A stretch of 64,000 bases of DNA from Euglena gracilis (lineage: Eukaryota): NCBI GenBank assembly GCA_039621445.1, contig CP154954.1, forward strand, positions 9,178,634 to 9,242,633, given 5' to 3'. Below, piece after piece: positions 29,201 to 62,200 of this stretch. The notes under the pieces are model-generated. The model had not been told where the DNA came from, ran no database searches, and saw only the letters and a program-made list of their open reading frames with translations. A program made the position numbers and the translations under genes. The first letter of the stretch is position 1, and the number at the start of each line of letters is the position of its first letter.

Positions 29201-31235
29201 GAACGTGGTTCTCGATATCGCGGATCCATACAAGCTGTATGTCCTGGAAGTCGACAGCAGCGATTACGCTGTTGGCGGGGTTCTTAGCCTGCATAATGCG
29301 GCGAATGAACTCCGACCTGTGGCTTTCTTCAGCAGGAAGCTACAGGGCGACAACGGGAAAGGACAGGTTAAATGGAGCATTCGCGAAAAGGAGACATATG
29401 CCATTGTGCTTATTCTCCAGCAATTCCGCAGCTGGATAGCCAGCAGCTTGGTCCAGATACTTGTGTTGACGGATCATGAGAGCCTTCAACACTGGTATAC
29501 CGAGGACCTGAACAAGGCCAGGTCATCAGTGGGCAGAAGATGCCGATGGCATGAGTTCTTGAGCCAGTTTAACCTGGTGGTTATCTATACCCCAGGTCAC
29601 ACGCAAAAAGTTGCGAATCCTCTCAGCCGAGCCCCCTGGTATTATCCTGGGAACCCGGATGAGGGTGATGCGACTTTTCATGGCAGCCATGAGGCTGACC
29701 AGTTCGCACGTCGATCCGACGCTGCGGACAACATGCTCGATTCACTACCCGTTTCCCGGGTATATCGCAGCATCGCCATTTCACCATTGCGTGGAAGGCG
29801 CCGGCGTGGACGCACTGCCGGACCCCGTCGCATTACGCGTACGGAAACTCCTACCCCCATATTTTTCCGCGAATGGGATTATTCGCGTGACCCTATATAT
29901 AGTACCATTGTGAATAGACTTCGTAAATGGTGAATCTATAGAGAATTACTCTCTATCACCATTGCGACTTATTTTCCGGAATGATTCTGGTTATAAATAT
30001 TGTATACCCCAAGACCTGGTTGATGATGTGATTTTCAGCTATCACAACCATGGTCACCCTGGGGCCCCCAAACTTCTTTCACTAGTGGGTCGCAGATGTT
30101 GCACAACCCTGAGTGTAAAAGATTTATATTCGCGCTGTTTGCGAATTTCGCAACGGTGCCAAATTTGTCAGGCTGTGAAACCGCGCAGAGGTACCCCCCC
30201 TGGTACGATGGACTTTTTCCCCGTACCACCAGACATTTTTACGTCCCTCTGCATGTATTTTCTCGAACTTGAACCTTGCAAAGGATCAGATGACAAAATT
30301 TACGGTTACGTTTTTGTTGTATCTGCTTAATGGGTTTACCGAACGAAATCGTGAGTGATCAAGATCACTTGATCTCTTCGCGGTTTTTCACAACTTTGTG
30401 CGTTTTACTCGGCATTGAGCAGCATTTTTCCATTATATACCGCCCAAAAGGCAATGATAGAGACGAGGCAGCCGTGAAATCCGTTGTCAATATGCTTCGC
30501 CTTTCACTGGCTGACTCGGGTAAGAATTGTTTATCCGTTCTTCACTGGTGTTTGTTTTACATCAATACCTTGCCAGGGTTGGTATTACCACACTCACCGT
30601 ACAAAATTGTTTTCGGACGAGACCCTCCGGCCATAGGGGATATCCCCTCGGAGAGACATGCCCGAAGTAGCGTCAGCTGTGAAACGTGGTTTGCAGAAGT
30701 GGAATCACTCCGCTCTGCAGTCCAATCACGTAACACAGAAATTCATTCCAACAAACGGAAATCGTTTTTACAAAACTTAAACACACCTGTGTATAGTCCA
30801 GGTGACCGCGTGTGGGTACGGAATAACCGCACCCGCATGCAATCTTCCAAGCTAGATCCTCTTTGGCTCGGCCCATGCGAAATATTGGAGAGGTTAGGTA
30901 GTAGCGGGCGATATAAAGTTGCCTTGCCCAACGGGATTGAGGACGTCCATATGGACGACTTCAAACCGTACCTAAGCCCCTCAGACGGAAAAGCTATCCC
31001 CTGCCTATATTTCAAGCCCCGTTCCAGATTACCTGAAACGGACGATTTTGTGGTCGATAGGATAATAGACCACAAGGTCGACAGGGGTGTGCACTACTGG
31101 AAAGTTCGTTGGAAAGGGTATGGGCCAGAGGAGGACACTTGGGAGCCAGCATCCAGTTTTGTTGGATATATCCAGCAGGATTGGAAGCTGTGGAACAAGC
31201 GCAATCACATAGACATAAACATAAACACTTTCTGA
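26205..31235 (+). pseudogene. pol: Pol of A2: protease, Cys-rich spacer, Dam-like domain, RT, RNase H, integrase (internal deletion), chromodomain
   Basis: IIDTGC protease motif ~26505; IDAF...NAF...WMHPPP 27717-27840; stops at 26430 and 28221; frameshifts. Confidence 0.9.
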
Positions 31236-31431
31236 AACGATTTCGTTTTGGAGAATGCGTGTGTTTTATGTGAATGTTTCGCGTTTATACCCCCCCTGCA
31301 CTTCCTTCTTTCTCTATCTTTCTCGCAGAGTTTTTAATTAAGATAGAAGCCTACTTTTTTTCAGTGCACCAGCACTCACAGCGACTGACAACAAGGTTAC
31401 CCTTGGTTGTCGTCGTCGTCCGGGTAGCATC

Positions 31432-34400: not shown

Positions 34401-36929
34401 GCTTCCACCACCGCGATTCCGCGGCGGGAGGAACGCGACCGCAGCCCCTCCGTCACCATTCTAGAGGCAGCGCCGCCGTCTCCGACAGGAACGGCTGTAT
34501 CCTTCGTCTCTGCCCCGCGAGCGGCAGGGGAATGATCGGTTTCCCCGGCTCCCGCGGCGGCTTCCGTCTGTCCACCGGTAGGTGGAGACCAGGAACTTCC
34601 TGAGGAGGTAGGTGAGAACGTGGAGGATATCCTCTACGCTGCTCTGCCTACTCTGGCACAGCCTAGGCCAGACGAAGCACCCGCAGGGGATATACCTGGG
34701 GCTGCTACGCCTGTTCCAACGGCTGAGCCTCCAGCCGAGGTGACTGGTATGGTCGTCGAGGATATCCTCGAAGAACCTACCAGCCCCGCAGCACGCACCT
34801 CATTAGGAGGCCGTGTGCTCGGCGCCGTCGTCACCGGCATTACTGCCGTGGCTGCTGCACTAACGCCACGAGGTGGAGGCGTAGCATCAAGCTCCGCCGC
34901 CGAGGTCGTGGAGACACCAGATGTCGGTGTCCCCGCACCCCCATCTCCGGCAGCAGTGCAACCATCTTCAGGGGATGAACCCCAGCCGACAGAGCCATCT
35001 GTCGCACCAGCTACAGCGGAGGATCAACCTCCCGTAGTAGCTGCGCCAGCGGTTGTGGAGGATCAACCTCCTAGACCGGATGTCGACATGGAAGTGGAGG
35101 AGATACCCCCACGACCATCGACACCGCGCAGGGTCCCTGCCGTCCCAAGGACAATGGCAGAGTTTCTGGGAGCGCCAGCGCCTGTGGAAGCACCGATTCC
35201 GGTGACGACCACAGTGCCACGCCTCGTCGGACAGGATGAACCTGCTCGGCGACGGCCGGCTGAACAACCCCAGGAACGTGTGCCGACCCCTCGGAGCGTC
35301 ATGCGCGACCCAGCGGTCAGTATGCCCGCTTCGCCCAGACGGCAAACGTCTACTCCGGCACCATCGGCTCCTGATACCAGGAGTAAGCCGCAGGCGTCGC
35401 CTCCTGATTCCGGGAGTGCGAAGCCGAAAGGAGGCAAACCGGGTGCTGCACCCTGTAAGCCCCCTGCCAAAGGCGGTGATGGGAAACCACCACCGAAAGG
35501 TGGCGCTGGAGGTCAGACTGGCGGACATCCGAAAGGCCCTACGACAATGCACGACTATTCGGCCGTTGCATCGTCCGGGTACGGCCAGATCAAACCGAAA
35601 GGTAAGGCTCGTGGCCGACAGGCCCAATCTTCCGCCGGATCGACGGATGAGGAGCAGGATGAACCTGCTTCACCTCCTGTGTCTGCGGATGCCCAGCTCT
35701 GGACTCAGGATATCCTGACCAGACTAGGCACCGTGGAAGAGAGGACGAAGAAACTGGCTGCTATTAGGCACCAGAAAGGGTCACTGAATCGATGGATTCA
35801 GCCCCTCTTCGTCCGAGGAGAACCTTTCCACTATGCCCCGGAACATACCTGGACATTCTGGAACAGGCGCTCACCCAGAGTACTGGCACAGTACTTTGGT
35901 GAGGACTGCGTGTTGGATTTCCAGCACGGCACGTCCTTTGCCTGGACGTGCACCGTGTGCCACCATGTGCGGCACAACCAACCGCTTGTGCATGTGTGCA
36001 AGCGGCAGGTGCAATCCTCGTGGTTCCATCACAGGGCATATGTGCCGAACTGTGTGGCGCTCGTATGTGGCGAGTGCCTGAACGCCTGGAAGCACAGCTT
36101 GAACTACTCCTACAGTGAGAATGCTCACGACAGGGATATCCCTGCCTTGTGCATCAACTGTATAGGAGCCAAGTTCGTGCAGACTGCTGATGGAGCAGTC
36201 ACCACCATTGTCCCCCACCACTGGGAGACACTGGAGAAGTGGAAGAAGGAGTACAAGCAGGTGGAAGGCCGCCTGAAGCACTCCGACTTCCGAAAGGTAG
36301 AAAGCTACCGCCACACGGGAATGGCCCGTGAGTTCCAGATCGACGCTGGGGCAATGCGCCTCGCCGTCGAGGAACACGCCAAGGTAAGAATGCCTTACCT
36401 CTGGACTGATGGCGACTGGGAGACACAGGTTTACCCCCTGTTCTCCAAGCGTCAGCATGGCGGATACGCCTTGCCACTGTGGCCTCCTGAAGAACACGAT
36501 TTGGTGGACTTCAGAGGTTGGTTGGCGGCTGTATTACGGCCCCATACCGCAAGAGCTCGGACAGCGAGGTGGATGTATGACATCAACTTCAAGCAGACCC
36601 CGGGGATGCCCCCGCAGGTGCCTGCGAATCACCCCCGGATGAATTACATCATCTGGCCGGTGATGCTGCCCAGAATTTTCTGGGAGCAACTCCAACGGTA
36701 TCTTCAGCATCATGCTGAACGTACCAGGGAGAAGCTGCCGGATAATTGGATCAAGGACTGGGAGACCCCTTCCTTTGATGTCAACGATCCGGAGCTCAAC
36801 ACCATTCGGAGTGAATCAGCTCCGCCGCGTTCCCCACGCCAACTGGAGTTGGTTGAGGACCCATTAGGGGACCCCCAACACGACTACTGGCGTGAGGTGC
36901 GCGAACGTCCAGCCGATAAAGGCAGGTGA
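31432..36929 (+). pseudogene. ORF3 of A2, disrupted
   Basis: Collinear with 11743-17256; stops at 32506, 33859 and 34533; frameshift ~34150. Confidence 0.9.
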
Positions 36930-38606
36930 GGTGTCTGTGAGCGCCAATGCGGCGTCTTTCAGCACCCTCGTCAGGTATTCGCCTGACACCCTGTTTGGGT
37001 ATTCGCCCGAACAACCCCTTCGAAGACCCTTTGCGGTATTCGCCGCTAGTAAGTTCCCACCGGGATGCTGCCATGTGCAGGATTCCGTGCGCATGCATGC
37101 ACACCCCTCTCCCCTCTCCCCTCTCGCGGGCGTGCGACACGCAGCGCACGACGGGGGCCGACGGCCTCTTTTCCTTTCCCTTTCTTTTCTTTTCGGCCGT
37201 TTGAGGCCTTAAGGCTGCCAGACAGCACAACTTTTCTGGCCTAAGCCAACCCCCCACTCCTCTCTACTTTCCCCCCGGGGCAAATGCTGTCGCCGGCAGT
37301 TGGTTTTGTAGAGTAGGATTTCCTTTTGCGTGGTCAGGTTTGACTGGCCATGCGACCTGCCCAGGTTTGACTGGTCAGAGGCCCCCTCCTTCCACACCCT
37401 CCCCATGCGTTTTCCTGGAATGCCCATGGACCCAACCCCAAGTGCCTTGGTCACACCCAAACTGGGTGGATGGGTTTGTTTGGCAAGGAAACCTGCCAGC
37501 CCCATTTTCCCCAGTGGGCTATAATATACTATATACCCAGAAGCCACCGCAGAATAGGTGAAACCATTTTTGCGCGTTTTGGGCTTTTTGGGTCCCCACC
37601 TTTCCGCCCCCCCCCCCTTTTTGAGTGGACCCCTGTGCGACGGAAAGGGCCCCTGTGGATGCGCCAGGGTGCACCTCCCACAGACCAGGTCTGTGTCCGA
37701 AATCCCTGTGGCCAGAAAGGGGAAATCGGGCATAGCCCTGGGAGGGGGATGTGTACCAGGCGTATGCTTCTGTCCCCTTACGTTGAGGAAGTTAGGATGG
37801 AAGCAGATCCTATTAGGATCTCCTAATGCGTGCCCCTTCTCTCTCCACAGGTGGTATTCTTCTTTATACGTTTTCCTTCCCTTCCATCGGACCGGACTTG
37901 GTTATCCAGTCCGTCCTCCCTGCATTGCTCTGTGCTTTGCTTCTTGGGAAGTGGGAAAAGGGATTTTTCTGTTTCTCTGATTTTCAGTTCCCAAGCAGGT
38001 GCGCTAAGGCGAAAGCGAAGGCTTTTGGGAATTGGGAAAGGGGAATTGGGAATCAGACGTACACTGATACGCCACGGCAATTTTTTGTTGAGGGTGGGTT
38101 AGAAACACCATGTTTCTTTCAGCCCCCCCTTACGCTTCCCCCCACAAGTCCGATTGGACAATTGCCCGCACCGACCGATACGGGTTCTTTTCCGGCATTG
38201 CCATGGCACCCGGAGATGCGTTTGACAGTACCGGCTTATACAAGTCCCACAGAATTTATGAGCAGTGATGTGGAAGAGTTGGAAAATATTTCGCCTCAAC
38301 CCATTACCGTGATTCAGCGCATAGTCGCAAATCTTCCAGTGGACCACCCGCTAACTCGGCAAATCTCCCATGTCCACACTTGTGTAGCGTATTGCGCTAT
38401 GCCACTTAACAAGGTTTTGGATTTAGATGAAAACAACCAAAAGGTTGTAGAACACAAGCTGAATTACCTTTGGAGTTATGTGCGTGATGTTCGTGAGTAT
38501 TGCCAAACAAATTTTCAATCCACCAATGTGGACATAGCAACTTTGCGCCAAGGTTTGGACACACATTTGCAGGTACATTTGCCACAACACTTCCAAAAAG
38601 TGAGTG

Positions 38607-48093: not shown

Positions 48094-50285
48094 TGTGTAC
48101 CAGGCGTATGCTTCTGTCCTCTTCCGTTGAGGAAGTTAGGATGGAATCAGATCCTATTAGGATTTCCTAATGGGTGCCCCTTCCCTCTCCACAGGTGGTA
48201 TTCTATTCTTTTATATTCTTGTTCCTTCCTTTTCTCCGGACCGGACTTGGATATCCAGTCCGTCCTCCCTGCATTGCTCTGTGATTTGCTTCTTGGGAAG
48301 TGGGAAAAGGGTTTTTCTGTTACTATGATTTTCAGTTCCCAAGTAGGTGCGCCAAGGCGAAAGCGGAGGCTTTTTGGGAATTGGGAAAGGGGAATTGGGA
48401 ATCAGACGTACACTTGGTAGCAGATTGGTTACGATCCTACACATACTTCACAGAAAGAAAGGCTACCAGGTATTACTCACACGATCACAGAAAGAGGTAC
48501 CAGGTATTACGGTATCATTTTTTTCGATCCTACGCAGCGACAGGCTCCGGACTGGACGGTATTACCGTCGCGCGTCAGCTCGCGCTCTATCAGGTCGCAC
48601 AGGCTCCCTCTGTACGAACAGGCTCTGGTGCCAGCAATTGTTTGTGTTTGTTGCTGTTTTTGTCTTGGTTTTGTCATCAAAGCAAAACAGGCTTCACACC
48701 CCCATCAATTCAACTATGCCTTTTGGCATTGCATGCAAACATTGACGGGATTGCTGTTATTAAGTGCAAAGTTCCAACGCCGATAAGGCACAACTGGTTT
48801 CAACATTGCCAATGCCATGGTGGCCTGCGCACCTTCACATGCTCCACGTCAGGTCTGCGGCAATGGTGCCGCACACGCCTCCGCAGGCCAGCGCCGTGGT
48901 GGCAAACCCCCTTCTTTCAGCCACACCCACCCGTCTCCCCCACCAGCAAGCCCTTACAGAGCTTTGCCACCACCCGATCTTGGGTGCTATCCCCTTGGCA
49001 ACGAGGAGGCCTGGGGTACCACTCTGGTACGTCCCAACCCAAGGCTATGGAAGTCCACTGCTGAGGGTTCGTTGCTCGGCTTCCAGGGGATCACCCACTT
49101 GTGAGGCAGTTCAACCATGTGCAACAATGCGTTGCAGATTGTGCAACCGCGTTCAACAAAGTGCTTCAGTTTGATGGGGACAACCAAAAACATGTCTTCG
49201 CCAAGCTGGAATACTGCTGTAATTACTTGCAAGTGGCAAATATTGCCAGATGAATTTCGAACTTGCTGGTATTGACCTTGCAAACTTTCGGGAAACCTTT
49301 GACAAAATGTGCCAACAACTCCCGCAAAACTTCCGGCTAATTAGTGAATGCATGCCTGAAGTGGAAACGCGGAATGACTCCAAGTTTCTGCACTTGCATG
49401 ACTCACTCCAGAAATTATCGGGACAAATGGAGTCCTGTTCATCCGCTTTGTTGCATTTGCAACAGCAGTTGCATGCACGAGATTCCTCGTCTGCAACAAC
49501 AAACAGTGGTGGATTTGTGTCTATGGACCATTTCACCACATTGTCCGCAACTTTCCATGAATCGCAACAGCGCATTATGCAGTTGTGCGATGAAACGGAA
49601 AGGTTTCGGCAATTCCAGTCACAAGCCAACGAGAATTTTGCTCCCCACACGTATGTGCGGCAGTTGGAGGAGCGACTTTCCCGTTTGGAGCAGAAAACCT
49701 GCTATTGTGACGCAAATCGGGTTGGATTATCCAATCTGAGCGCGAAAGTCGCGGAAGTAGCACAACGGCAGGATTCCCTGCAGTTGCAGTTGCAATCCGA
49801 CATTGGCGGGATTAACTCGGCCATTGCGGGTTTGCAACAAAGCTATTCCGCACTTTCCCACCGAGTTCCGGACATTAGCGGTATTCAAACTGCTATTGGG
49901 AACTCCAGACCCGGTATGCATCGGTGTCTGCTAAAATAACGGAAATGCAGTCTCTACCTGCAGTTTCCAGTTCCCGGATTACCGAGAACCCTGATTTCAA
50001 GGCATTTTATGACAAAATGCTCACCGGCAACCAGGAAACCTTGCAAGGTTTCTGCAACAGCCTATTACGGCTTGAGGAATCGGTGAATCGGAATGCCCGA
50101 TCCACGCAAGGTGAGATTACCAGGTTGGATGAGCGAATTTCCGCGTTTTTGGATAAGCCACAACCCGGAAGTTTGCCCGTGGGTACCACCACCGTGTTGT
50201 CGGATAACCCTGCACCGGTTGCACCCACCGCCACACCAACCAAGGTGACATGACCTTTGCAGATTCGCTGTAAAAGCATTAATGG
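48094..50285 (+). mobile_element. Partial copy A3: 5' LTR 48094-48414, PBS, degenerate gag
   Basis: A-type LTR; gag homology ends abruptly at 50285. Confidence 0.9.
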
Positions 50286-50764
50286 TGTTGTAACCGTGGT
50301 GCCCGCCCTGGAGTTTCCAGTCCCTCGGGGCCGGCACCCCGTTGCGTAGGATCTTTTACACTGCCCAGGGTGTTTTCAATTCCCCTCGTGGCTTGTTTTA
50401 AAAATTGCATTTTCTTTTGTTTTGGTGGGTCTTTTTGGTGAAAACAGGTGAGTTGGGTGGCTCACACCTTTTCTTTGATAAAAAATCCACAAGACCAACA
50501 GCACAATACAAGCAATTCAGCAATTCCAAAACCAGCACCAATGTAATGAACCACGTACTGTCCAGGTAAGAATGATAATTGATAACCAAGATAATTCGAT
50601 TCTTGAACTTGAAACAGACAAAAACAAGACAGAGCCCTGTGCAGACAAATGGGGTCAGCTAATTGATAATTCCTAATAAGATTTTCCTAATCCTAACTGC
50701 AGAGTCATCAGGTTGGGTTGGGTTAGGTTATGTTGTTTTGGGCACTCAGCACCCCTGACTCACA
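50286..50764 (-). repeat. Putative 3' LTR of element C
   Basis: Minus strand reads PPT GGGAAGGGGAG, then TGTGAG...ACAACA, ending at the A3 gag break; no second copy in the window. Confidence 0.55.
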
Positions 50765-51913
50765 CTCCCCTTCCCGAAGGAGTTGTTTACAACTCTTCAC
50801 GACTCCAACAGGAAGGGGTGTGGAGTGCACTCGTTGTGAGGAGGGGCCAGCGAGGGGACCGTTGTGGTTCAGGGTCCCCCCCCCTCAGGGGGCTGTGCCG
50901 TTCAGGTTCGTTTTAGGGCCGGGGGGCTGAGTCAAATGTTCTCCTTTGACAGTTGGGTCTGTGCGGGGTCTGGTGTGTTGTCCCCCCCCCAGCCCGCCTA
51001 GGGCTGTTTGTCGTTGGGGGGGGGGGCAGGCGCCGTTGTGAACCAAGCGCCAGCCACGGTTAAAATTTTCAGGAAATTCTTATTCCCAGGTCAGGTGAGT
51101 TGTTTTGTCACGGTCAGGGTCCTAGACAGCCGTTTTCTGTTCGGTTAGCCAATTCGTTGTCTGGGGTTGGTGTCCGTTCGGTGTTGGGTGGGTCCAGCTG
51201 GGGCCTTCCAGCCCCCCCCCCCCAGGCCAAGCGGTCAGGCTTTGGCCGGGGACGAATTTTAATAAAAATCAGGTGAAGGCTGGGTTTCGGTTAAAAATCA
51301 GGCTGGGTCAAGGACAATGTTTTTTTTGTATTTTTGTATTTTTTTTCTGGGGGGTAGGCTGGTTTGTGCGAGGTCAGGTGCTGTGGATGGTCCTCGCCCC
51401 CCCCCCCGGGCCGGTGGCCCGGGGCCGGCCAGGTCCGGGATTTTTTAGACAAAGTCAGGTTTCCCTTCCACCGTTTGCCCAGTTTGGCTGGCTGCTACGG
51501 TTGGGGTTGGGGGCTGTGTTTTGTTTTTACAAGTAGGCTGGCCAGGTCCAGGGGTGAAGGTTCGTTCTCCCCGGGGGGGGTCCCAACCAACAACAACAAC
51601 GATGATGAATTGAAGAATGGATCGATTGGCAGAAGAGAGGCACTTGAGGTCAGTGAATTCGGGTCGGGTCGGGTCTTGTTCAGGTCCGTTGGGCTGGTTC
51701 GAGTTGGGCTGGCCAGCGGTTCGGGTTCAGGTGGGCTGGCCAGGGGGCTGCCCATGCCTGTTTTGTCGTTTTGAGTCAGGCAGGTTTTGTCAGTGGTGTA
51801 CAGGTTCAAGTCGACAGAGGTTAATATTGGTGGTAGAGCTGGGGTTGGCTTCCAGGTCGTTGTTTGGCGACGTGGCGGTGTGTGCGAGAGAGCGCAGGGG
51901 TATGTGACACGTG

Positions 51914-54544
51914 TCACTCCATCCCATCAAGCAACTCTCTCACATCCACAGCTAAATCCCGTTCCTTGCAATATTGGACCACATCTTTGTTCGTTCGGAG
52001 GAAGAAGTGGTTCAGGGGTTCCCACTGAGTGTCAGACGGGTCCCAGTTTTTCCACTGAATCAAAAATTGAAGTTTTCCGTCTTTCCTACGGTGGTTCAGC
52101 ACTTTTTCAACCTCCCACTCGTCTGGGCCGACCTCCAACTCCTGTGCCTTGCCCGACCAAAAATAGAGAGGGACAGGGGTTGTGTTGTAGAGGTCCTCCA
52201 CGTGGGGTTTGAGTTGTGAACGGTGGGCAGGTTGTCGGTTTCCCGGTCGTAGTTCAACCACGTAGGAGTGTTGTCCTACCCGTTCCAACACCACCGCAGG
52301 TCCTTTCCACTCCGGTTCGAGTTTGTCGGTGCCAGGTTGTCTTTCAGGTTGATACCAGACTTTGGAACCGATTTCCAAGGCAGGTGGTTCTCTGCGTTTT
52401 CGGTTCACAGTTTCAGCCCGTTCACGTTGTTTTTCGTTCGGGACCAGGCTCACCCACTGGTCTTGTTCTTTCATCCTTTCCAAGAACGCTGTGGCCCCTT
52501 CCGCTTCCCTTTGTGGTTGGTATGGCAATCCCGCCAACGGTCTGTGCCTGCCAAACACAATTTCGTACGGTGACAAACCGGTTTCACCTGGGACGTCGTG
52601 TAGGGCCCTCAAGGCGTTCGGTAGGAGTTCAAACCAGGGTACCCCTTTTTCAGCAGCCAGTTTTGCCAGTTTTCGGAGGACTTGTTGACCCGCTACCTCA
52701 GCCCGTCCGTTGGCTTGGTGGTGGTATGCCTGCCCGTATGCCACACGGACCCCGTGGGCAGCACACAGTATTTTCCACCAACCGGCTGTGAAGTGGGAGC
52801 CCCGGTCGGAGCTCACCACCGAGGGTATCCCAAAAATTCCCCACTGTTTGTACATTTCCTTTCCAACCTTTTCTGCTGTGAGTCCCTTGGCCAGGTGGGG
52901 GGTTGCAACCATCCACCCACTCAGCCTGTCCACACACAACGCCAACGTGTCATATTTTTTCCCTTCAAAAGTCGTTTCAGGCAGTGAGAACAAATCGATG
53001 GCAACACTGTCCATCAGGTGTGCAGGAATCGGTGTCGGTTCGATGGGGCACTTGTATGGTAGGTGGCTGGGTTCTGTTGCTTGGCAGGTTTCACACATGG
53101 TCATCATTTTGCCTGTCAGTTTTTTTGCATCCTGGTGGTCCGCAAACGCAAACCACCTTCCCATCTGGTCCCACAGTCGGGCTGACCCTGGGTGCCCGGC
53201 TGTTTCGTGATGTTCCCGAATTACGTTTCCAGTCAACCCACTTGGTACACACAGGAGACCGTTTTTGTAGAGCCTGCCGTTGTCGAATCGGTACCCGTCA
53301 GGCCAGTTTTTGAACCCCGTTTCCTTCAGGTCCTTGAGCACAGGTCCCCACCTTGGGCAACTTTCGTACTCGTTCTTCCATTCCCTGTCCATCACCCCTT
53401 TCGGTTCCCCCTGTTGAAGCTCCGGGGCGTGCACTCCCCTTGATGGAGGTCCAACGGGTGTCCCTGTTGAGGATGACGCACCTTGCGCGTCCTGTTGTTT
53501 TGTTGAGTCTGTTGTTGTTAGGGGTTCCACAGGGTCCTCTTCCAGGGGTCTTCGCCTTGGTGGGTCTTCCTCAGTGGATGGTCCCTCGGCCGTTTTTGAA
53601 TTTTTTGGGGTTTTGTTTTTTGGTTGGTCTGGTCGGATCAGGTTTCCCGCCTCGTCCGTGGTCTCCCTTGGGGTTGCCTCAGCCAGTTTTTTGTTTGGTT
53701 CCACCACAGTCTTTTCCTTCACAACCCATTTCTTTGTCGTTTTTGCAGGTTTTTGAGCTGGTTTTGAAATTTTTTGAGGGGTGTCACCATTTTCCGTTGA
53801 ACCAGGCACTGTGGGCGAATCTTCACCCGTTTTGGCTCCCCCCCTTGTTGTGACGGCCACAGTGACGGGTTCTTGAAGTTGTTTTTGTGCCTGTGTCAGG
53901 TCTGCCACGTTGATCACCATACAAGTTTTCTGTTCCTTTTCCTCCTGTTTGATGATTTCTTTCATGAGTCGGTCGTCCTCCTCACTCCCGTGGATACTCA
54001 CGTCGGCGAATGCCTGTGAGGCGGGGTAGGCCCACCTACTCAAGGCATCGGCGACCGTGTTGTCTTTGCCAGGTACGTATGCAACGGTTATGTCGAACCG
54101 CGAAAGCAGTTCGTGCCACCTAGCCCTACGTCCAGCTGGTCCACTGGGGGTGTCCAGCGCCTCCGTTGCCCATGCCTCAATGGACTTGTGGTCCGTCAAC
54201 ACCAGTACCGGTTGCATTCCTATCCAGGAAGCCCATTTTTGCAGGGCCAGGATCACTGCGTAGGTCTCCTTCTCCCTAGGAGACCACGAGCGAACCTGCC
54301 CAGGTGCCAGTTTTCGTGAACAGAAAGCTACGGGTACTGTTTTTTTGGTCATGGCTGTTGTTGGGTCTGGTTTGTCTGCAGTGTCCTCCGCAAATTGTTC
54401 CAGAGCCGCACGTACGGCTCTGCCACTTGCATCCACCCTGAGTATGAACGGTTTGTCTGGGTTCACCGTTTGCAGTTTCAGGCTTCCCAGCAGTCTTTCT
54501 TTGATGCTCTGGAAGGCTGTTCTTTCTTTTTCACCGAAAAACAC
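51914..54544 (-). CDS. pol: Element C pol 3' part: RNase H, low-complexity spacer, integrase, chromodomain
   Basis: VDASG/REKE/TDH; H-H-C-C; IDLF, SDRG and AEVA; IQWKNWDPSDTQWEP. Confidence 0.95.
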   Translation of the reverse strand: MFFGEKERTAFQSIKERLLGSLKLQTVNPDKPFILRVDASGRAVRAALEQFAEDTADKPDPTTAMTKKTVPVAFCSRKLAPGQVRSWSPREKETYAVILALQKWASWIGMQPVLVLTDHKSIEAWATEALDTPSGPAGRRARWHELLSRFDITVAYVPGKDNTVADALSRWAYPASQAFADVSIHGSEEDDRLMKEIIKQEEKEQKTCMVINVADLTQAQKQLQEPVTVAVTTRGGAKTGEDSPTVPGSTENGDTPQKISKPAQKPAKTTKKWVVKEKTVVEPNKKLAEATPRETTDEAGNLIRPDQPKNKTPKNSKTAEGPSTEEDPPRRRPLEEDPVEPLTTTDSTKQQDAQGASSSTGTPVGPPSRGVHAPELQQGEPKGVMDREWKNEYESCPRWGPVLKDLKETGFKNWPDGYRFDNGRLYKNGLLCVPSGLTGNVIREHHETAGHPGSARLWDQMGRWFAFADHQDAKKLTGKMMTMCETCQATEPSHLPYKCPIEPTPIPAHLMDSVAIDLFSLPETTFEGKKYDTLALCVDRLSGWMVATPHLAKGLTAEKVGKEMYKQWGIFGIPSVVSSDRGSHFTAGWWKILCAAHGVRVAYGQAYHHQANGRAEVAGQQVLRKLAKLAAEKGVPWFELLPNALRALHDVPGETGLSPYEIVFGRHRPLAGLPYQPQREAEGATAFLERMKEQDQWVSLVPNEKQRERAETVNRKRREPPALEIGSKVWYQPERQPGTDKLEPEWKGPAVVLERVGQHSYVVELRPGNRQPAHRSQLKPHVEDLYNTTPVPLYFWSGKAQELEVGPDEWEVEKVLNHRRKDGKLQFLIQWKNWDPSDTQWEPLNHFFLRTNKDVVQYCKERDLAVDVRELLDGME

Positions 54545-55560
54545 AGGTGTCAGGCTTCCTTTCTTCCCCTTGTCCCTTTTTTACTTTCAGTTTTTCCATC
54601 AGGTCTGCCGCCAATTCCGCATACCCTGGGATGTATGAGGCGTAGTAATTTGTGAATCCCAGGAATGCCCGCAGGGCTGTGACCGTTTTTGGTTCCTCCC
54701 ATTTTTCAAAGGCCATCAGTTTCCCAGGTGCTGGTTTTCGTTGTCCACCACCGAGCACGTGTCCACAGAATTCCACCTCCTTCACGAAAAATTTGCATTT
54801 CTTGATGTCTGCCACGTGTTGCTGTTTTTCAGTGCCTCCATCACCCTCCTGATGTCTTTGTCGTGTTGTTATAGGGTTTTTTTTTCTGTTTTCTGCCACA
54901 CGGTTCCTACGATTATGTCGTCCACGTAGGGGTTTGCAATGTCCTGTACCTCCTCCAGGCTGTACTCGATCACCCTCTGGAAAATCGGTACACCGTTTTT
55001 CATTCCCATGACCACCACTCTCCACTGTTTTGTTCCCTTGGGTGTGCTGCAGCAGGTGTAGGGTCTGGATTCTGTTCTCAGTGGCACCTGGTGGAAGGCG
55101 TCTTTCAGGTCCAGTACACTGTACAGGGCCCGTTGTCCTTGTTGAACTAGGATGTCTTCTATCCTAGGGAGGGGATGGGCGTCTGTGATTGTTGCCTCGT
55201 TCAGTGCTCTGAAATCCACCACCCCTCTCCATTTTCCACCTTTTTTGGCCACCACGAACGTGGGGCTGGACCAGTCACTCTTCCCGTCTTCCACTTTCAG
55301 GTCCCTAACCCATTCGTCCACCATGTCGATGAGTGCCTGTCGGCGTTCTCCTGTCATGTGGATGGGTCTTTGCTTTTTCGCCACTGTTCCAGGTTTCAGT
55401 TCGATTTTCCCATAACCCAGTGGTCCGCGTTCTGGGGGGTCTGGGTAGATTTTGTCTCGCAAGACCACTCCTTCATAGTCCTGCCGCAGTTTTTTCACCA
55501 GTTCTGCCACCTTTTCGCCTTGTGTTTCCTGTCCTTCTGGCACCACCACAACACCGTGAA
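54531..55560 (-). pseudogene. Element C reverse transcriptase (frameshifted)
   Basis: WRGVVDFR, LDLKDAFHQ, MGMKNG, YVDD and FCGH spread over several frames. Confidence 0.92.
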
Positions 55561-55829
55561 CCCTGTCAGATTTCTTTGCCGATTTCTGAAGTTGTTTTGG
55601 CCAGAGTTTCCAGTGTTGTTTCGTCTTCAAACAGTTTTTCCTCGTCCTGGCCCGCTTCAGCAGGAATCTGCAAATTCATTGCCCGCACTGCCGAAATGTT
55701 TTTCTGAAGTTGGTGTATTTTCCGTTCCCTGTGTTTTTGTTCCTTCAGCTGGTGCCAACTGGACAGCAGCCGCAGTGGTTCACCTATGAGGGCCAGTGAT
55801 TGTAGCTGTGGGAAATCCCCCCAGGTGGT

Positions 55830-56160
55830 GTTGTTCCGTAACGGATACCCGAGGATGGCATCCACTTGGATGTCGGCGTCATGGAACGTTCCAATGGTGG
55901 ACCATTCCCTTGTTCTGTCCGTGTTGTGCACCCGTGATGAAAACTGCAGTTCCAGTGTGACTTCGTGTAGTCCTCCTTCCATCCTTGTTCCGTCCGCTGT
56001 GATCAGGGCCAAGGGTTTTTGTGAACGTCTGAAGTTTTGTTGGGGAATCAGGTTCTTTTTCACCAGGTTTGCCTGTGCTCCCGTGTCAATCAGGGCCTGT
56101 AGGAACATTTTTTTGCCGTCCGGCAACACAGCACGGACTTCGATGAGGAGTTGTTTTGCT
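55830..56160 (-). CDS. Element C aspartic protease domain
   Basis: ALIDTGAQANL...ITADG...DAILG. Confidence 0.88.
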
Positions 56161-56409
56161 TTCTTTCTGCTGATGACCTGCCCCAGCAGGAGTTTGGACA
56201 CCGGTTCACACAGTCGTTTTGGAAGCCGAATGTTTTGGTCAGGTTCTGTTTTGTCAGTTGAATCTGGGTTTGGCTGTTGACCTGTCAGTTCTGGGCTGGG
56301 CTGTGAGAGCATGTTTTGTCGTGCAGTCTGGGCAGGGCTGGGCTGCTGCAGCGGTTGTTGCTGCGCGGCCTGGGCTTGGCTGGTTTGCCGTAGCCGTTCG
56401 TGGAACCCC

Positions 56410-56989
56410 GCCAGGTCCTGAATCAGTTGTTCTGGGATCCTGAATTTTTTGAAGGCTGGAATGTTGTGTTTGTTGCTGAGTTTCACCAGGTGACCACCAC
56501 CGTTTGGGTCCAGGTTCTTGCACGTTTTCCGTCACACCGTTTTGCTGGTACCTGCAGGATGTCAGGGCTGCCCCAGATTCGTGTTGGTTTTTTGTAACCC
56601 CAGTCTGTGTATTGACAGTAATCCACGTCAATGTACGGGTACGGTTTCATGTAATCTCGTTTTCCCAGGTATCCGTACCTTGGGTTTTCCAACCACCATT
56701 TCTGCGGCTGCAGAAATTCCACAATTTCCAGGGCTTTCTTTGCAAGGCTGTCTCCCTTTTCCAGGTTTCTGGGTCTTGTCGTCAGGGCAATGCTGAATTC
56801 TGTGCAGGGAACTCCACACACCACCGTGTGGAATTCACCAGGTTTGAAATGTTTTCTGAAGTCCCAGTCCAGTACGTCCACCTGGTAATCCGCTTTCCAC
56901 CTGGGGTCTGAATCCACCGTCACCACCTGGAAACCCATTTTTTCATACACCTTGCTGACCGATTTTGTTCCACAGAACAGGTCCAGCAT
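56410..56989 (-). CDS. C5-cytosine DNA methyltransferase domain in element C
   Basis: Motif I LDLFCG, IV GVPCTEFS, VI LENP, then DYCQY...KPTRIW; C-terminal FRIP after a 1-nt shift. Confidence 0.9.
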
Positions 56990-57512
56990 TTTTGGGTTGG
57001 TTTTTCTGCTGTGGCCCGTTCTGGTGTCGCTGTGGCTGCCTTCTGCAGTTTTCTGATGTGTTTCTGTGGTTTTTCTGTCCCCAAATCGGCTTTTTGTTCA
57101 CCACCCTCCACCTCGTCCTCCACTGGCGGGTGCTCGTGGGCTGTGCCGAACCTCACCTTGGATGTCGGATGTAGGGGGGTGAAGTGTTTGTGGAAACCTG
57201 GTAGGTACTTGCACCGTGTTTTGTGTCCGCATACCAAAAACACTTCCACATGCCACGGTGTATTCCTGCAGTTCTTGTCACCCTGTCCGAACAGTTTTGT
57301 TCCCGCTGGGATGAACATTGACATCACTGCCAGTTTTTTGATTTCTCCGTACCATTTTCTGTGAACCCATCTGGGTACCATGAGGAGTGCATGGGCCTCG
57401 TCTGTTTGGATTTTTCTCACCACCTGTGAAATTTTGCTGAATGGGGGGTTCATCCACAGCAGTTTTCCGTGCCAGTTTTTTTCAAATGCGTCTGTTCCAT
57501 CTGGGCTGCCAG
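56990..57512 (-). CDS. N6-adenine methyltransferase (Dam-like) domain in element C, 5'-truncated
   Basis: DAFEKNW...WMNPPFSKISQVVRKI...LLMVPRW...WY. Confidence 0.88.
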
Positions 57513-59228
57513 TATAGGGGGGGGCCCATTCCGGCCCCCACTTTGTCTTTGCCATTGGCAGATCTGACATTTGCAGGTTTTTCTGTAGCAATTCTTGTAC
57601 TCCCCTGCCAGCATAAATCCTTCCCTTTCAGCAACCTTCAGCGCCCAGGGGCCACAGACATTTGTAGGATCTTTCCCCAGGTACTTGACACACTGACTCA
57701 AATTTTCCTTTTCAATCTGCTCCTCCCTGCGCCTTGATTCCTCCATCAGCCAATTCATTGCGCCAAACCTTCCCAAAACCACAGCAAGAAACAAACCAGA
57801 AGTCAAAGCCCCAAAGGGTTCATACTGCTTGCCACCTGCACAAAGTTACAGATGACAGACTGTGGAATGTACAAATTAGGAATCTCTGGCCTGGCTCTGC
57901 TTAATTCTGCTGCACATCTGGGAGCGAATCCCACACTCCCCTCCTCAAAAAGCTTCCCAAGCTATGTCAGCCATTGGCATCTGGGAGTCGCTCACAGATG
58001 GGCTTCACCTGTGCCACCTGCCTTTCCACCGCCCTCGAGCCACACAAGTCGTTTTTCGAGCAATTGCCAACCCCACCATGCCACACCCGTGCATGCCGTG
58101 GCCCACTGCCTGCGGTTTGTGCACAGGGGGCAATTGGTTCCCTGGAGCAATTGCTACCTGAGCAATCGTCGAAGACGTGCCACCAGGGCCTGCCACACAG
58201 GGGGGGGGTTTGGGGCAAAAGTTACCTGGGCAATCATCCCGGAAGATGTGCCACCAGGACTTGCCACACAAACCGGCATGCCACTGAAAATTCGACCCGG
58301 AGCTTTCGACAGGGGGCAAAAAGAACAAGGCAATCAGGTTAACACCCGGTCCGCTTAGTCCTCGAGTCGCTTGGCAGCCTTAAGCTTCAGCCTTCTCCTT
58401 CTCCGCTTCCAACTGGTCGTCTCATTCTTCCCTCTTGACTTTGGTTCGTCTGCACCTGGCTCAGCCACATCCTTCTTCGGGACTTCCCAGTTGAACGGTT
58501 CTTCCTCGTCGGTGGACTCGCATCTGACCTTTGACAGCTCCTTCTGGCTTGTTTCTTGCACTGCATCACCAGCATGTACACCTGTGGCATGCACAGCTTG
58601 AGCATCTTCTCCATCACCACTTCTGGCATGCAATGGGTCCCCATGGCCCAGCTGTACATCACCACATCCGCCTTCATCAACTTCAATGTCACCATGTCCA
58701 GGGCTGTAATGCCCGATGCTGGCATTACACACCTCAGCATTCCTTGACTTGTCATCTTCAGCATGCACAACTTGGACATCTCTGCAAGGCTCATGAACCC
58801 TTTGTGTAGGGGGGGGGCCCATTCTGGCCCCCACTTTGTCTTTGCCATTGGCAGATCTGACATTTGCAGGTTTTTCTGTAGCAATTCTTGTACTCCCCTG
58901 CCAGCATAAATCCTTCCCTTTCAGCAACCTTCAGCGCCCAGGGGCCACAGACATTTGTAGGATCTTTCCCCAGGTACTTGACACACTGCCTCAAATTTTC
59001 CTTTTCAATCTGCTCCTCCCTGCGCCTTGATTCCTCCATCATCCAATTCATTGCGCCAAACCTTCCCAAAACCACAGCAAGAAACAAACCAGAAGTCAAA
59101 GCCCCAAAGGGTTCATACTGCTTGCCACCTGCACAAAGTTACAGATGACAGACTGTGGAATGTACAAATTAGGAATCTCTGGCCTGGCTCTGCTTAATTC
59201 TGCTGCACATCTGGGAGCGAATCCCACA
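57513..59228 (-). mobile_element. Non-autonomous LTR element (TRIM-like), 1.7 kb
   Basis: ~423-bp near-identical repeats 57513-57935 and 58805-59228; PPT GAGGAGGGGAG; CCAG on both flanks (57509-57512, 59229-59232). Confidence 0.88.
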
Positions 59229-59299
59229 CCAGGCCCCCCCACGACCCCCCCCAGAACCCCCCCAGGACCCCCCCAGGACAGGGTCCTGGGGGGGGGAAC

Positions 59300-62200
59300 G
59301 GCCATAAGTGAACGACACAATCGTCAACGGCACTACCACCGTTTTCATTTCCAGCCCATCTGGATGCTGGAAGTCAGCTGCCCGTACAACGGGATCAGCC
59401 GATGGCTCAGGAGCCTGGATCCTGGACTGGGGATGTGGAGCAGGCCGAGGCCGAAGGCCGTATGGCTGTGGAAGAGGAAGTACCAATGGTACATGAACCT
59501 CTTCCAGAACCCTGCTTCACGTCACCTCAGCAAAGTCATCCACTACCAATCCCTGGAACAGCTTCAAGGCCCTCGGTCTGGAGAGCGCAGATATGCGTCA
59601 CAGCCGTACAGGTCAGCAGACCTGGGGAAACGGGGTAGGCCAGAATCTTCATCCCCAATGAAGAGACCGAAACCACCAGCCCCCGCCCCAGCCCCAGCCA
59701 GGCTAACCAAGCACGGCAACGGCGGACGTCGGGTGGGCAACAGGCCGCACCCTCGCCCGTACCCGTGCCGTTTGCCGTGCTGGATAAACCAGCGCCAATG
59801 GCGCAAACCCCCAGACCGGTGCCAGTAAAAGCAGCAGCGCCGGCAGCTCCAGCAGCGCCAAAGGCGCTACAGCTTGTAGCAGCGCCAACGGCGCCACAGC
59901 CTGTAGCAGCGCCAATGGCGCCATCACCACAGTGCCTCCAGGCCAACAGGCCACCACCGAGGTACTGCCTGTTCCTGAACCCACTCTGCAACAGCTCGAG
60001 GAGGCCGAACTGGCCCAAGGAGCCCATAGGGCAGCAATCGAGCATGAAGCTGCGGAGCGTGCACACGTACATAAAATTCTTGATGACACCCTCGAACGTG
60101 TACGAAACCCCACCTACATCGATCCGCCTAGAGGCGAACCCCTCCCTATCAACAATCCACCGCTATTGGCGGACATTAAGGATCAACCTGCAGCATAACC
60201 AGCAGCCAAAATGGCTTATGCCTCACAGGAATTGCTTGGACGAAGAAGCGATATGAATCCTGCCTTTTTGGGACCCCGTTTCGCATCCCATCTCAGTCCT
60301 CATGCTTGGAAACAAGCTAGAGAAGAGATTCCTCAATGGGAATCCCGATCGGGCAAGGGTAAAGGCAAAAATGATCCCAAACGAGCACCTACTGCAGGCC
60401 AAAAGGACAAGGCCAAGTCCAAAAAGGCCAATACCGGGACGTCTATGAAGACGACATGGCAGCTCTATTCGAGCACATCCAGAGTATTCATGACCTCGCA
60501 TTCGAGGCCATGCGGAGGTTCGAAAATGAACTTAGTCTTCCAATCCGGGTCGCCTCCCCCGTCGTGACTTTGACCAGACAGCTCTATATGGAGCGCAATC
60601 GTGAGTTCCACCATGATGGAACTTTATATGCCTTTGAGGGCAATGCCATCTTCGGTCCGATATTGGACAATCTGCCAGGTTTCTGGCACGTTTGGTTCTG
60701 GGCGGGAAATCCCACCCAAAACTTCGAAAGGTTCCTGAACTCATGCGGTTATCCTTATCTGGATTGTGGTCGAGAAGACCGATACAATACAGGTAAAGAC
60801 CAACTGCAGCAGCTATTTGACTGCGTCCGCAGTGTAGGCCTGGAATGGTACATCTACCCACTGCCCGAAAATATCGCCAAATTGGCGGAAAACATGTTCT
60901 GCAAGTCTTTTACCACTGGCAATATGCCTATCACTTCGAAGTGGTCGATATGGACCTCCGCTTCCGCCAGATGTATATCGTCCGATGTTCTTACTGCTAC
61001 GAAAAGTTTGCAGTGGACTTCTGGGGATTCGGAGTACGCAGTACTCAACCACAGGCCGAAGGCCGGGATGAGGACGGCAAACAGGCCAATATCCCGCAGA
61101 CAGCGCCAAAGCGCATCATGCTCCTGCACCTTTGCAAAAATCCAAAGGATGTTCACCAAAGCTCGAACGGGCGACGCAACCACCGTCAACCCCTGCTGTA
61201 TTTGCAGCAGTTCTGGTTCAGGGCTTGGACCTGCCAGATCATGGAGATATATTATTATATCAACCCCGATAGGGAAATTCCCCCGGACTATGTCCCGATC
61301 AGGCCCCGGTTCGAAAAGGAAAGCATTGACGATTATGTCAAACGCCGATTCGGCGATACGCTCGATAGAGCGTTGTTACTGCCGTTTTTTTCAAGGCGGC
61401 AGAGTCAATGAACAGGGCATGGCCATACCCCTCCTGCGCTTCAACCACACGATGGTTGAAGGTGAACGGACGCCATTGGACAGTTTCCGATTACGGAAAA
61501 GACACGTGCCAAAGGCACAACGCCCCAAGCCGCAATCGGCTGCGGAAGTTCGGCCATCGGAATACTCAACCCAGCCGCAACTGGCAACATCAGTCACATC
61601 TCAGCCGCAATCGGCAACGCCAGTACCCCAGGGAATCCCTGGTCAGACACCACCACCTGTATTCGGGCGTGGTCGGCGTTACCTGGGATCAAGCCTATCG
61701 GCTACGGCAGAACCTTTTGTCCCTAATGGACCTCAGGAAAGCCAATTTGCTGTCGCCACCTCTTCTCCCCAGCCCGCTACTGCGGCACCCACCAGCGCGA
61801 CTGCGCAAACAGGTACTGTGCCTAGCGCTATAGCGGAACAGCCAGCAGCCCCTGCCGCTTCACCAGAAACGGTGGAGTGCAGTGAAGAGAGCGATGGCGA
61901 AAGCGGTGAAGACCGCATGGAAGGCCTGGAGGAAATATGTGCTGATGAACCTCAGCGTCCAGCTCTTCCGCCAGCCCCAATGGGCTCAAGAACACCCCTT
62001 CCTCCTGAGGGAGATGCAATCTCAGAGACCGAATCCCCTACATCTAAGGCTGAACAGCCAGCGGTACCTCTGGTACCACCCCTCTCCTTACCTGGAATGC
62101 CAACGGCACCAACCACGACAGAATTTGTCGCATCACCGACAGTACCGACAGGTGTTTTAGGTGGTGTGCTACAGGGTCTGACCGCGGCAATGTCCGCAGT

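Follow-up and report, generated by a model that had tools for sequence, protein, structure and literature searches.

Dam-like and C5-cytosine methylase domains in the pol of a Euglena gracilis chromovirus: a defective copy and its in-frame relatives

Results

Domain organization of the locus

We searched the minus strand of a 64-kb stretch of Euglena gracilis DNA (hereafter the window) with Pfam models, revealing a Dam-like domain, a small C5-cytosine methylase, a protease, a reverse transcriptase (RT), an RNase H, a DDE integrase and a chromodomain, in that order, between 57510 and 51914. This bears out the domain order of the original prediction for this locus. The Dam-like adenine-methylase domain (57202-57510) is joined by a linker (56990-57201) to a C5-cytosine DNA methylase of ~200 aa (56412-56989), which is followed by a retroviral-type aspartic protease (55920-56144) with a DTG motif at 56079-56087. 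The protease was recovered by tblastn with the protease parts of three relatives (P0015, P0028 and P0036), and Pfam protease families matched the ORF at 55566-56531 with E-values of 5e-4 to 3e-2, all under their own cut-offs. The RT (54600-55249; RVT_1, E = 4.4e-22) contains YVDD at 54917-54928, and the RNase H (54095-54463) was matched by RT_RNaseH (E = 2.2e-19) and RT_RNaseH_2 (E = 1.3e-15). The integrase (52721-53248) combines an H2C2 zinc-binding domain (Integrase_H2C2, E = 4.4e-5) with a DDE core (rve, E = 1.5e-5) and ends in a C-terminal chromodomain (52013-52117; PF00385, E = 8.5e-10, 38.9 bits against a cut-off of 25.1). RT_RNaseH, Integrase_H2C2, rve and Chromo all fall on one 888-aa ORF (51914-54580), with Chromo at residues 822-856 and the stop codon of the element at 51914-51916.

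Full-length relatives were collinear with the window from 57495 to 51923 (tblastn). The succession of protease, RT, RNase H and DDE integrase is collinear with that of P0028 and P0036 (Pfam and tblastn), whose integrases are ~40% identical to the one in the window. We rejected identity as a DIRS element: rve and Integrase_H2C2 are present, and a tyrosine recombinase was not found in the ORFs scanned.

Two predicted methylase domains

The Dam-like domain is N-terminally truncated in this copy. On the ORF at 56920-57627, Pfam Dam (PF05869) scored 22.1 bits (E = 1.3e-4), below its cut-off of 28.1 because of the truncation. Alignment to the relative P0001 shows that the domain begins, at 57510, with the residue matching G43; about 42 N-terminal residues are gone, including the LDAFA of P0001, and over residues 43-213 the two sequences are identical at 159 of 171 positions. 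Contigs of runs X15 and X20 diverge from the window beyond 57510, and their reverse complement reads ...NKRFPQWWGS, the P0001 residues preceding that point. A complete phage-type N6-adenine methylase domain was not found in the window copy, which keeps NPPF at the predicted place (57439-57450) and is missing the N-terminal D-x-F-A strand. Of the 26 Dam domains examined, 22 have D[ACV]F[ASG] and 21 have NPP[FWY]. TIGR01712 scores were low, at 24.6-39 bits (cut-off, 97); in a Foldseek search of viral models, the first domain of the P0001 model matched phage N6-adenine methylases.

The cytosine methylase carries FCG, PC and ENP, all of which had been predicted, together with a DYCQY..WGYKKPTRIW block and a C/C/H cluster. 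DNA_methylase (PF00145) matched the ORF at 56483-57097 above its cut-off of 22 (25.5 bits, E = 1.1e-5), which, with the Dam match, answers by HMM search the question of whether methylase domains are present, and phrog_757 matched the C5 domain with an E-value of 2.1e-14. A frameshift at 56528/56529 divides the domain in the window, and the segments concerned are identical to P0001 at 154 of 155 and 164 of 164 positions. Using Foldseek against the PDB, the P0001 model showed a methylase fold, with matches to DNMT3A, DIM2 and DNMT1 at E-values of about 1e-6 to 1e-7 (methylase domain of DNMT3A, 3.7e-7). The domain thus combines the FCG (motif I), PC (motif IV), ENP (motif VI) and Arg-bearing PTRIW (motif VIII) motifs with a Rossmann-type methylase fold. 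A profile of the methylase family reached E = 6e-4 at best against solved C5 methylases (DNMT1, DIM2 and DNMT2).

Of 61 methylase domains close to full length, 60 have PC and 60 have EN[PVI]; P277, C278 and E317 do not vary across an alignment of 34 sequences, and the catalytic motifs are kept across relatives with only 29-54% identity. In the AlphaFold2 (AF2) model of P0001, pLDDT is about 95 both for residues 11-140 and for most of 211-380, dropping below 50 in the linker (residues 146-193). Both domains gave confident models in which methylase folds were found, and we treat them as predicted methylases.

Frame breaks in this copy and unbroken relatives

The architecture as predicted, a DDE-integrase chromovirus with Dam-like and C5-methylase domains in pol, proved real on the strength of the Pfam matches and of relatives in which the reading frame is unbroken, while an intact polyprotein at the locus itself was not borne out. 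In addition to the Dam truncation, five 1-nt frameshifts and a stop codon interrupt this copy. The frameshifts lie in the linker between the methylases (56996/56997; a 1-nt longer form occurs in X1, X3 and X15), inside the C5 methylase (56528/56529; seen against family copies), just upstream of the RT (near 55599), in the RT (near 54824) and just upstream of the RNase H (54566/54567). The last three are evident as indels against other contigs and had been missed, as had the TAA stop in the RT (54869-54871), seen in a three-frame view. Loose contig ends at 54893, 21 from X1 and 14 from X3, read GAA on translation in place of this TAA.

For each of the five frameshifts, other contigs contain an alternative form differing by 1 nt, and all five alternatives together restore one frame. 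X15, taken to be an RNA run by guess only, has the alternative form at 5/5 sites, with one contig per site. In X1 and X3, both DNA-like runs, the larger part of the summed depth, which does not equal copy number, belongs to the window's frame-broken form at 4/5 and 3/5 sites, respectively; many family copies may therefore be defective. Support for transcription is weak, coming from one run guessed to be RNA and from a metatranscriptome possibly containing DNA.

Unbroken relatives were found in ENA, JGI and Logan sources. P0001 (544 aa) encodes Dam, methylase and protease in one frame. Its identity to the window is 93%, 99.4% and 100% over the three segments that are in frame there, and it scores above the Pfam cut-off for both Dam (31.9 bits; cut-off, 28.1) and DNA_methylase (22.6 bits; cut-off, 22). 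The same order occurs in one frame in P0005 and P0006, from contigs and sources separate from those of P0001. Four longer proteins (P0015, P0028, P0033 and P0036; 1763-1911 aa) carry Dam, methylase, protease, RT, RNase H, integrase and chromodomain without a break; the methylase of P0028 was detected by a custom HMM and is absent from its precomputed Pfam list. The domains therefore lie in a single ORF in P0001 and in these four proteins, unlike in the window copy, and other family members do carry the methylases in frame with pol.

Comparison with P0001 also bears on the two frame joins that had been proposed, each by adding one A to an A run. Both were right in effect: P0001 is joined at each, reading ...KPKPKMLDLFCG... 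across the first and ...CDGKTCKNLDPNGGGHLVKLSNKHNIPAFKKFRIPEQL... across the second, the latter exactly as predicted. The base positions differ in other copies: at the first join these carry the additional base ~8 nt upstream of the predicted site, within a short run of A, and at the second they carry it within a run of G.

Flanking sequence

A blastn comparison of 50000-61000 with the window revealed no LTR pair around the element within the window, a point that the original prediction had missed, and no target-site duplication flanking this copy was shown. Because the 5′ end is truncated, the failure to find LTRs is a property of this copy rather than of its family. With no LTRs, gag, primer-binding site or target-site duplication shown for this copy, the element is classed as an LTR retrotransposon by its pol homology and chromodomain.

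Foreign sequence adjoins the truncated 5′ end (57511-59229; blastn and register alignment), in the form of an LTR-like mini element of 873 nt enclosed by a pair of direct repeats, each 420 nt long (57517-57936 and 58810-59229; 99.3% identical). This mini element is outside the methylase element, and summed word depth in X1 falls from ~330,000 to ~38,000 across 57349-58016. On the other side, the 3′ flank after the stop codon (50270-51913) has high depth, meaning that it is repetitive in the source organism, and has no other match in the window at a word size as small as 7 nt; it may represent the 3′ UTR and 3′ LTR. The window as a whole is a patchwork of nested repeats and holds a second Dam chromovirus, which is DNMT-less.

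Viral relatives and placement within pol

The closest kin found for the cytosine methylase are stand-alone methylases of ~210 aa on viral contigs and a protein of Tetraselmis virus 1, an observation that appears to be new. These viral mini methylases (Tetraselmis virus 1 A0A2P0VN45, 218 aa; 59 IMG/VR contigs; phrog_757) are of the same size and alignable end to end, sharing with the element methylase PC, ENP, the DYC..WGY.KPTR block, the C/C/H cluster and a C-terminal YRIP. They are 35-41% identical to it, with E-values of 2e-28 by sequence and 4.2e-19 by fold, and PC is kept in 42/43 and EN in 43/43 of the stand-alone relatives. Unlike the element domain, they are separate genes, and most of those aligned have a ~20-aa insert after motif IV. 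Within chromovirus pol, the methylase module occurs at five different places, each arrangement forming a clade of its own in the methylase tree (support 98, 100 and 99), and this too appears to be new. The tree is unrooted and gives no direction of transfer between virus and element.

Discussion

The locus is, with high probability, a dead, 5′-truncated copy of a Ty3/gypsy chromovirus whose intact family members encode a polyprotein running from a Dam-like domain through a C5 methylase and pol to a chromodomain. The novelty that the original prediction saw in such a combination is not upheld: in May 2026 a preprint (Fernandez-Moreno et al., bioRxiv 2026, 10.64898/2026.05.21.726589) described, under the name EpiLTRs, LTR elements of Euglena gracilis and Cymbomonas tetramitiformis that combine DAM, DNMT and a chromodomain. 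The DAM (PF05869) and DNMT (PF00145) that mark EpiLTRs are both present here, DAM through the intact relative P0001 and the NPPF motif. The E. gracilis EpiLTRs are likewise described as Ty3/gypsy LTR-type, among other DAM-carrying LTR elements, and we infer that the window element belongs to this family. The likeness is one of domain set, the Euglena domain order being absent from the preprint's main text, and the window copy differs in being truncated and frame-broken. The Cymbomonas EpiLTRs are also chromoviruses with DAM, DNMT and chromodomain, and their DNMT is reported to group with the Euglena one, but it is appended at the 3′ end of pol, whereas both methylases precede the protease here. 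In Supplementary Fig. 2D of the preprint, the EpiLTR DNMT is placed sister to the DNMT4 clade.

Other retroelements share parts of this architecture. DAM-LTR and DIRS elements are described as having a Dam-like domain with an NPP motif, but DIRS elements use a tyrosine recombinase in place of a DDE integrase, and ordinary DAM-LTRs are described as lacking the cytosine methylase. The DNMTs of Symbiodiniaceae and streptophyte retrotransposons (de Mendoza et al. 2018, PMC5890265) are likewise C5 methylases captured into a retrotransposon coding region; these are reported as DNMT3-type or LINE/DIRS-associated, in contrast to the ~200-aa domain of the window with its viral closest kin.

Could the methylases and pol have come together by chance or artefact? 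A nested insertion or assembly chimera placing a methylase element, or a host methylase gene, beside an ordinary chromovirus would suit the nested-repeat setting of the window and the unrelated sequence at the 5′ end of this copy, and the preprint warns that some Euglena architectures may be nested insertions or assembly artefacts (10.64898/2026.05.21.726589). We consider this very improbable, as the Dam-methylase-protease order recurs in one frame on separate contigs, the four long proteins run unbroken from both methylases to the chromodomain, and the origin of relatives in ENA, JGI and Logan contradicts a single misassembled data set. Random chimeras are also unlikely because each arrangement forms its own supported clade. 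An alternative concerning only the damage is that the assembly introduced the five frameshifts as homopolymer errors and that pol is intact apart from its truncated 5′ end. All five do lie in or beside short single-base runs and have an in-frame alternative in other data, and the window differs from the X15 contigs by ~1% (35 other letters over 3468 aligned bases, in five pieces). However, the window form carries 20-81% of depth in X1 and 40-86% in X3 across all five sites, in contigs not assignable to this very locus, and frame-broken forms thus exist in independent data; moreover, the TAA is a substitution, not an indel. Assembly error is accordingly improbable as the explanation for the frameshifts. 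Programmed ribosomal frameshifting between Dam, methylase and pol, like that of retroviral gag/pol, is the least credible account of the breaks. The first two shifts are indeed both -1 and near A-rich runs, but a zero-frame heptamer of the slippery pattern X XXY YYZ was not found at either site when the sequence was read, the five shifts are of mixed sign, and near-identical copies simply have the frames joined.

A weightier, though still unlikely, alternative is that in intact members one or both domains no longer methylate DNA but bind DNA or chromatin, or have RNA as their target. When eukaryotic DAMs were expressed in E. coli lacking Dam, 6mA is reported not to have risen, and these proteins are said to cover only a portion of the T4 and E. 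coli Dam enzymes in alignments (10.64898/2026.05.21.726589). The cytosine methylase, for its part, is tiny, its target-recognition domain being all but absent, and its family profile matches solved C5 methylases only distantly. Against such a loss stand the near-universal retention of the catalytic Cys of PC and Glu of ENP, the NPP motif of most Dam domains and the same catalytic residues in stand-alone viral relatives of equal size. In E. gracilis, a higher share of DAM-LTR insertions is also reported to be 6mA-methylated (10.64898/2026.05.21.726589).

The window copy itself is capable of none of the steps that an active element would require, and LTR expression in E. gracilis is reported as low or undetectable (10.64898/2026.05.21.726589). 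For intact members with active methylases, we tentatively propose, at somewhat less than even confidence, a putative role in marking the element's own DNA. The methylases would be made as part of pol and would act on the double-stranded cDNA of the element or on fresh insertions. New copies would thereby carry CG methylation, the default state in E. gracilis (10.64898/2026.05.21.726589), and perhaps 6mA too, and the chromodomain would direct integration to chromatin so marked.

Domain architecture and in-frame relatives

The family of dual-methylase elements is real. Six overlapping open frames on the minus strand (57627-51914) gave Pfam matches in the order claimed by the original prediction: Dam (PF05869; E = 1.3e-4, 22.1 bits, under the cut-off of 28.1), DNA_methylase (PF00145; E = 1.1e-5, 25.5 bits, exceeding the cut-off of 22), weak matches to aspartic-protease families, RVT_1 (E = 4.4e-22), RT_RNaseH (E = 2.2e-19), Integrase_H2C2 with rve, and Chromo (E = 8.5e-10). 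This HMM search had been proposed together with the prediction, and the motifs named there were likewise found, namely FCG, PC and ENP in the cytosine methylase and NPPF at 57439-57450 in the Dam-like domain.

A related protein recovered by sequence searches, P0001 (544 aa), encodes Dam, the methylase and the beginning of the protease in a single frame, exceeds both Pfam cut-offs and is nearly identical to three in-frame segments of the window (159/171, 154/155 and 164/164 residues). Its junction peptides confirm the two frame joins by which the Dam, methylase and protease frames had been linked. When the methylase ORF was used to search for longer proteins, 49 of 194 candidates matched. Of these 49, 22 also have a Dam domain according to a custom HMM, and four relatives (P0015, P0028, P0033 and P0036; 1763-1911 aa) each extend as one protein from the methylases to the chromodomain. 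Because methylase HMM matches were obtained and the domains lie in frame with pol in P0001 and these four proteins, the predicted architecture stands. A metagenome scan with P0001 returned two loci only, both distant (32-33% identity), so that a full-length copy of the family with its flanks was not recovered; an Rfam scan of the 64-kb window at gathering thresholds gave 0 matches.

An AlphaFold2 model of P0001, built from a 34-row alignment, had a mean pLDDT of 79, reaching ~95 over residues 11-140 and most of 211-380, with a disordered linker at residues 146-193. Foldseek matched the second domain to the DNMT3A methylase domain in the PDB (E = 3.7e-7), and also to DIM2 and DNMT1, while the first domain matched phage N6-adenine methylases among viral models; the sole phmmer match of P0001 to PDB sequences was irrelevant (E = 0.48). 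Across 61 near-full-length methylase domains, PC and EN[PVI] were each present in 60 and motif I in 57, and NPP[FWY] was present in 21 of 26 Dam domains. Since these catalytic motifs are kept even though aligned relatives share merely 29-54% identity with P0001, they look to be under selection.

Truncation and frameshifts of the window copy

The copy in the window is 5'-truncated and inert. Its family homology begins at 57510, corresponding to residue 43 of the intact relative P0001, and the sequence upstream is a 420-nt repeat (57517-57936 and 58810-59229, 99.3% identical), so the Dam domain is without its first ~42 residues; the missing part includes the LDAFA strand seen in P0001. Past 57510, contigs of two public sequencing runs carry different sequence, which in reverse complement reads as the preceding residues of P0001. 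No continuation of the methylase element was found upstream of 59229. Within the window no direct repeat flanks the element, and LTRs, gag and a target-site duplication are not demonstrable for this copy. Joints at 50764-50766 were rejected as the element end; they sit at a hairpin-like palindrome (~50768-50790) where several public contigs jump or change strand, which probably explains them, and we read them as contig-graph flips.

A three-frame view combined with public contigs revealed five 1-nt frameshifts relative to other family copies (56996/7, 56528/9, 55599, 54824 and 54566/7), and combining the alternative forms at all five sites restores one frame. The element also has a TAA stop codon at 54869-54871, where translated loose contig ends at 54893 have GAA (21 in X1 and 14 in X3, two DNA-like public runs). 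Could the frameshifts be pure assembly errors? In-frame forms exist in both runs, with shares of summed contig depth, which is not copy number, of 19% in X1 and 60% in X3 at 56996, 26% and 14% at 56528, 26% and 28% at 55599, 80% and 51% at 54824, 4% and 27% at 54566, and 28% and 0% at 54567, from contigs that cannot be tied to this very locus. A further run, X15, whose RNA label is a guess, has the in-frame form at 5/5 sites (one contig each). Pure assembly error is, on the other hand, made less likely by the presence of the window's frameshifted forms in X1 and X3, which are independent of the assembly. In X20, a leaf-litter metatranscriptome (0.35 of sampled words; depth in 24 of 30 bins and none in 6), the in-frame form occurs at two sites and the form of the window at two others, and the fifth site has no cover.

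Relation to previously described EpiLTRs

The original prediction held that an LTR element with both methylase types was new, a claim superseded by a preprint of May 2026 (10.64898/2026.05.21.726589), which reports DAM domains in non-DIRS LTR elements and describes "EpiLTRs" from Euglena gracilis and Cymbomonas tetramitiformis, in which an LTR element combines DAM and DNMT with a chromodomain. The literature search turned up no other paper describing this kind of element. If the window comes from E. gracilis, its element belongs to the very family of the preprint; otherwise it is a further member of the same kind. The preprint leaves an assembly chimera standing as a possibility for the Euglena architecture; the present locus independently confirms the fusion as a genuine architecture, as opposed to such a chimera.

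Possible viral kinship and shuffling of the cytosine methylase

In comparisons with viral proteins, a phage-type family, PF00145 and solved structures of DNMT1, DIM2 and DNMT2, the element's cytosine methylase resembles viral mini methylases, which points away from a DNMT4 kinship. Its domain matched the phage-type family phrog_757 (E = 2.1e-14, 54 bits), with PF00145 much weaker. Of 102 candidates in a near-length search, 91 proteins matched, some of them complete genes of ~210 aa. One of these, P0108, matched at 41% identity (E = 2e-28), and its own relatives occur on 59 viral contigs of IMG/VR, of which at least 15 measure 24-27 kb. By fold, the top viral match was a Tetraselmis virus 1 protein annotated as a putative cytosine DNA methylase (218 aa, E = 4.2e-19, 35% identity, TM 0.79). 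Element and stand-alone viral methylases can be aligned end to end and have in common PC, ENP, a DYC..WGY.KPTR block, a C/C/H cluster and a C-terminal YRIP. Against solved structures, the methylase-family profile reached at best E = 6e-4 (DNMT1), 0.04 (DIM2) and 0.17 (DNMT2). An exhaustive profile search gave 907 cluster representatives at E ≤ 1e-30 and 7862 at E ≤ 1e-3; among the best 150, 136 were new, and of these we classed 56 as having the size of stand-alone proteins and 63 as parts of longer ones.

On one of the viral contigs (L004, 26 kb), a 209-aa stand-alone cytosine methylase at 8001-8630 lies ~5 kb upstream of an NCLDV-type Capsid_N ORF (13531-14952, E = 2.8e-9); this was the only Pfam match among 10 neighbouring ORFs, and 0 of 9 had a PHROG match. 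Four other such contigs (L006, L023, L028 and L050) are AT-rich (27-39% GC) and 0 of their 10 ORFs had a Pfam match, so that they possibly represent small dsDNA viruses infecting protists. In E. gracilis, giant endogenous viral elements are reported to carry methyltransferase genes (J Virol 2025).

In long relatives, domain positions were assigned with custom HMMs and motif patterns, the pattern-based protease and integrase calls being rough. The order Dam-methylase-protease is found in the window, P0001, P0005 and P0006; protease-Dam-methylase-RT in P0015, P0028, P0030 and P0031; and methylase-Dam-protease-RT in P0033, P0036, P0034 and P0039. Dam is absent from P0027 (methylase-protease-RT, with the methylase N-terminal) and from the chromovirus polyproteins P0042 and P0040 of ENA contigs (protease-RT-RNase H-methylase-integrase). 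In a quick tree built with IQ-TREE from 104 methylase domains (95 distinct rows; midpoint-rooted, with SH-aLRT as the sole support measure), the arrangements fell into separate supported clades, at 98 for the 8-row clade of the window and 100, 97 and 99 for others. Viral methylases formed one clade (97), which the P0042/P0040 arrangement joined weakly (77). The module may have been shuffled among several pol positions, including Dam-less lineages. This may be new relative to the preprint, whose screen was for DAM and whose main text, as far as we found, does not describe the Dam-less forms (P0042, P0040 and P0027).

According to the preprint, the element DNMT is the sister of DNMT4, on a tree of representative sequences taken from an earlier eukaryotic survey (10.64898/2026.05.21.726589). 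That placement and a viral kinship may be compatible, and the kinship may likewise be new relative to the preprint's main text. We give an even chance to the reading that the methylase belongs to a large family of ~210-aa stand-alone proteins of protist dsDNA viruses, of the Tetraselmis virus 1 type, and does not derive from a cellular DNMT family; that a chromovirus took or gave the module, which then came to occupy at least five pol positions with or without Dam; and that both methylation modules are of viral or phage-like ancestry.

Neighbouring elements

The two 420-nt direct repeats (99.3% identical) enclose 873 nt on the minus strand at 57517-59229, adjoining the truncated end of the methylase element. 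They start with TGTGGG and end with ...CCCCTA(C/T)A, with a purine-rich run just 5' of the downstream copy, and the whole has the appearance of a miniature LTR element. X15 contains a 721-nt contig that spans 58352-59073 and is deeper than the neighbouring element.

A large chromovirus (14-16 kb) has two plus-strand copies, at 4222-18377 and 21866-38054, with LTR pairs at 4222-4521/18078-18377 (100% identical) and 21871-22170/37755-38054. The second copy encodes a gag ORF with a CCHC knuckle, protease, a Dam-like domain (27564-27983; Pfam E = 7.9e-4, under the cut-off) and then RT, RNase H, integrase and chromodomain; no cytosine methylase is present, which makes this copy a DAM-LTR in the neighbourhood of the dual-methylase element. 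Downstream of the chromodomain, the first copy has a GC-rich (~62%) 1544-aa open frame (12622-17256) with no Pfam match, which in the second copy (32509-36929) is split into several frames. In the first copy, the gag region (4602-7274) runs opposite to that copy's pol and to the corresponding segment of the second copy (22895-25567), with arms 96% complementary despite identical LTRs; the inversion is either genuine or a fault of the assembly. A third LTR and gag start of this family lie on the plus strand at 48094-50269, adjoining the 3' flank of the methylase element on its lower-coordinate side; beyond 50266 the sequence continues in other copies of the family, with an 8-nt indel.

Proposed function and implications

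In intact members, the methylases would be produced within pol and would act on the element's own cDNA or fresh insertions, while the chromodomain would steer integration. Motif conservation and the methylome data of the preprint, where DAM-LTR insertions have a larger 6mA-methylated share, point to this putative mechanism, which we hold tentatively, at slightly under even chances. As the chief functional alternative, the ability to methylate DNA may have been lost from one domain or from both; eukaryotic DAMs brought no 6mA gain in E. coli (10.64898/2026.05.21.726589), and with the catalytic motifs kept across the family we consider this unlikely. According to the same preprint, CG methylation is the default state in E. 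gracilis and LTR expression is low; RNA evidence for the present family is weak.

Writers of 6mA and 5mC and a chromatin reader in one retrotransposon amount to a rare epigenetic toolkit of its own, one already in print. If the viral kinship of the cytosine methylase is true, it would link the gene pools of giant or small viruses, retrotransposons and host methylomes in protists.
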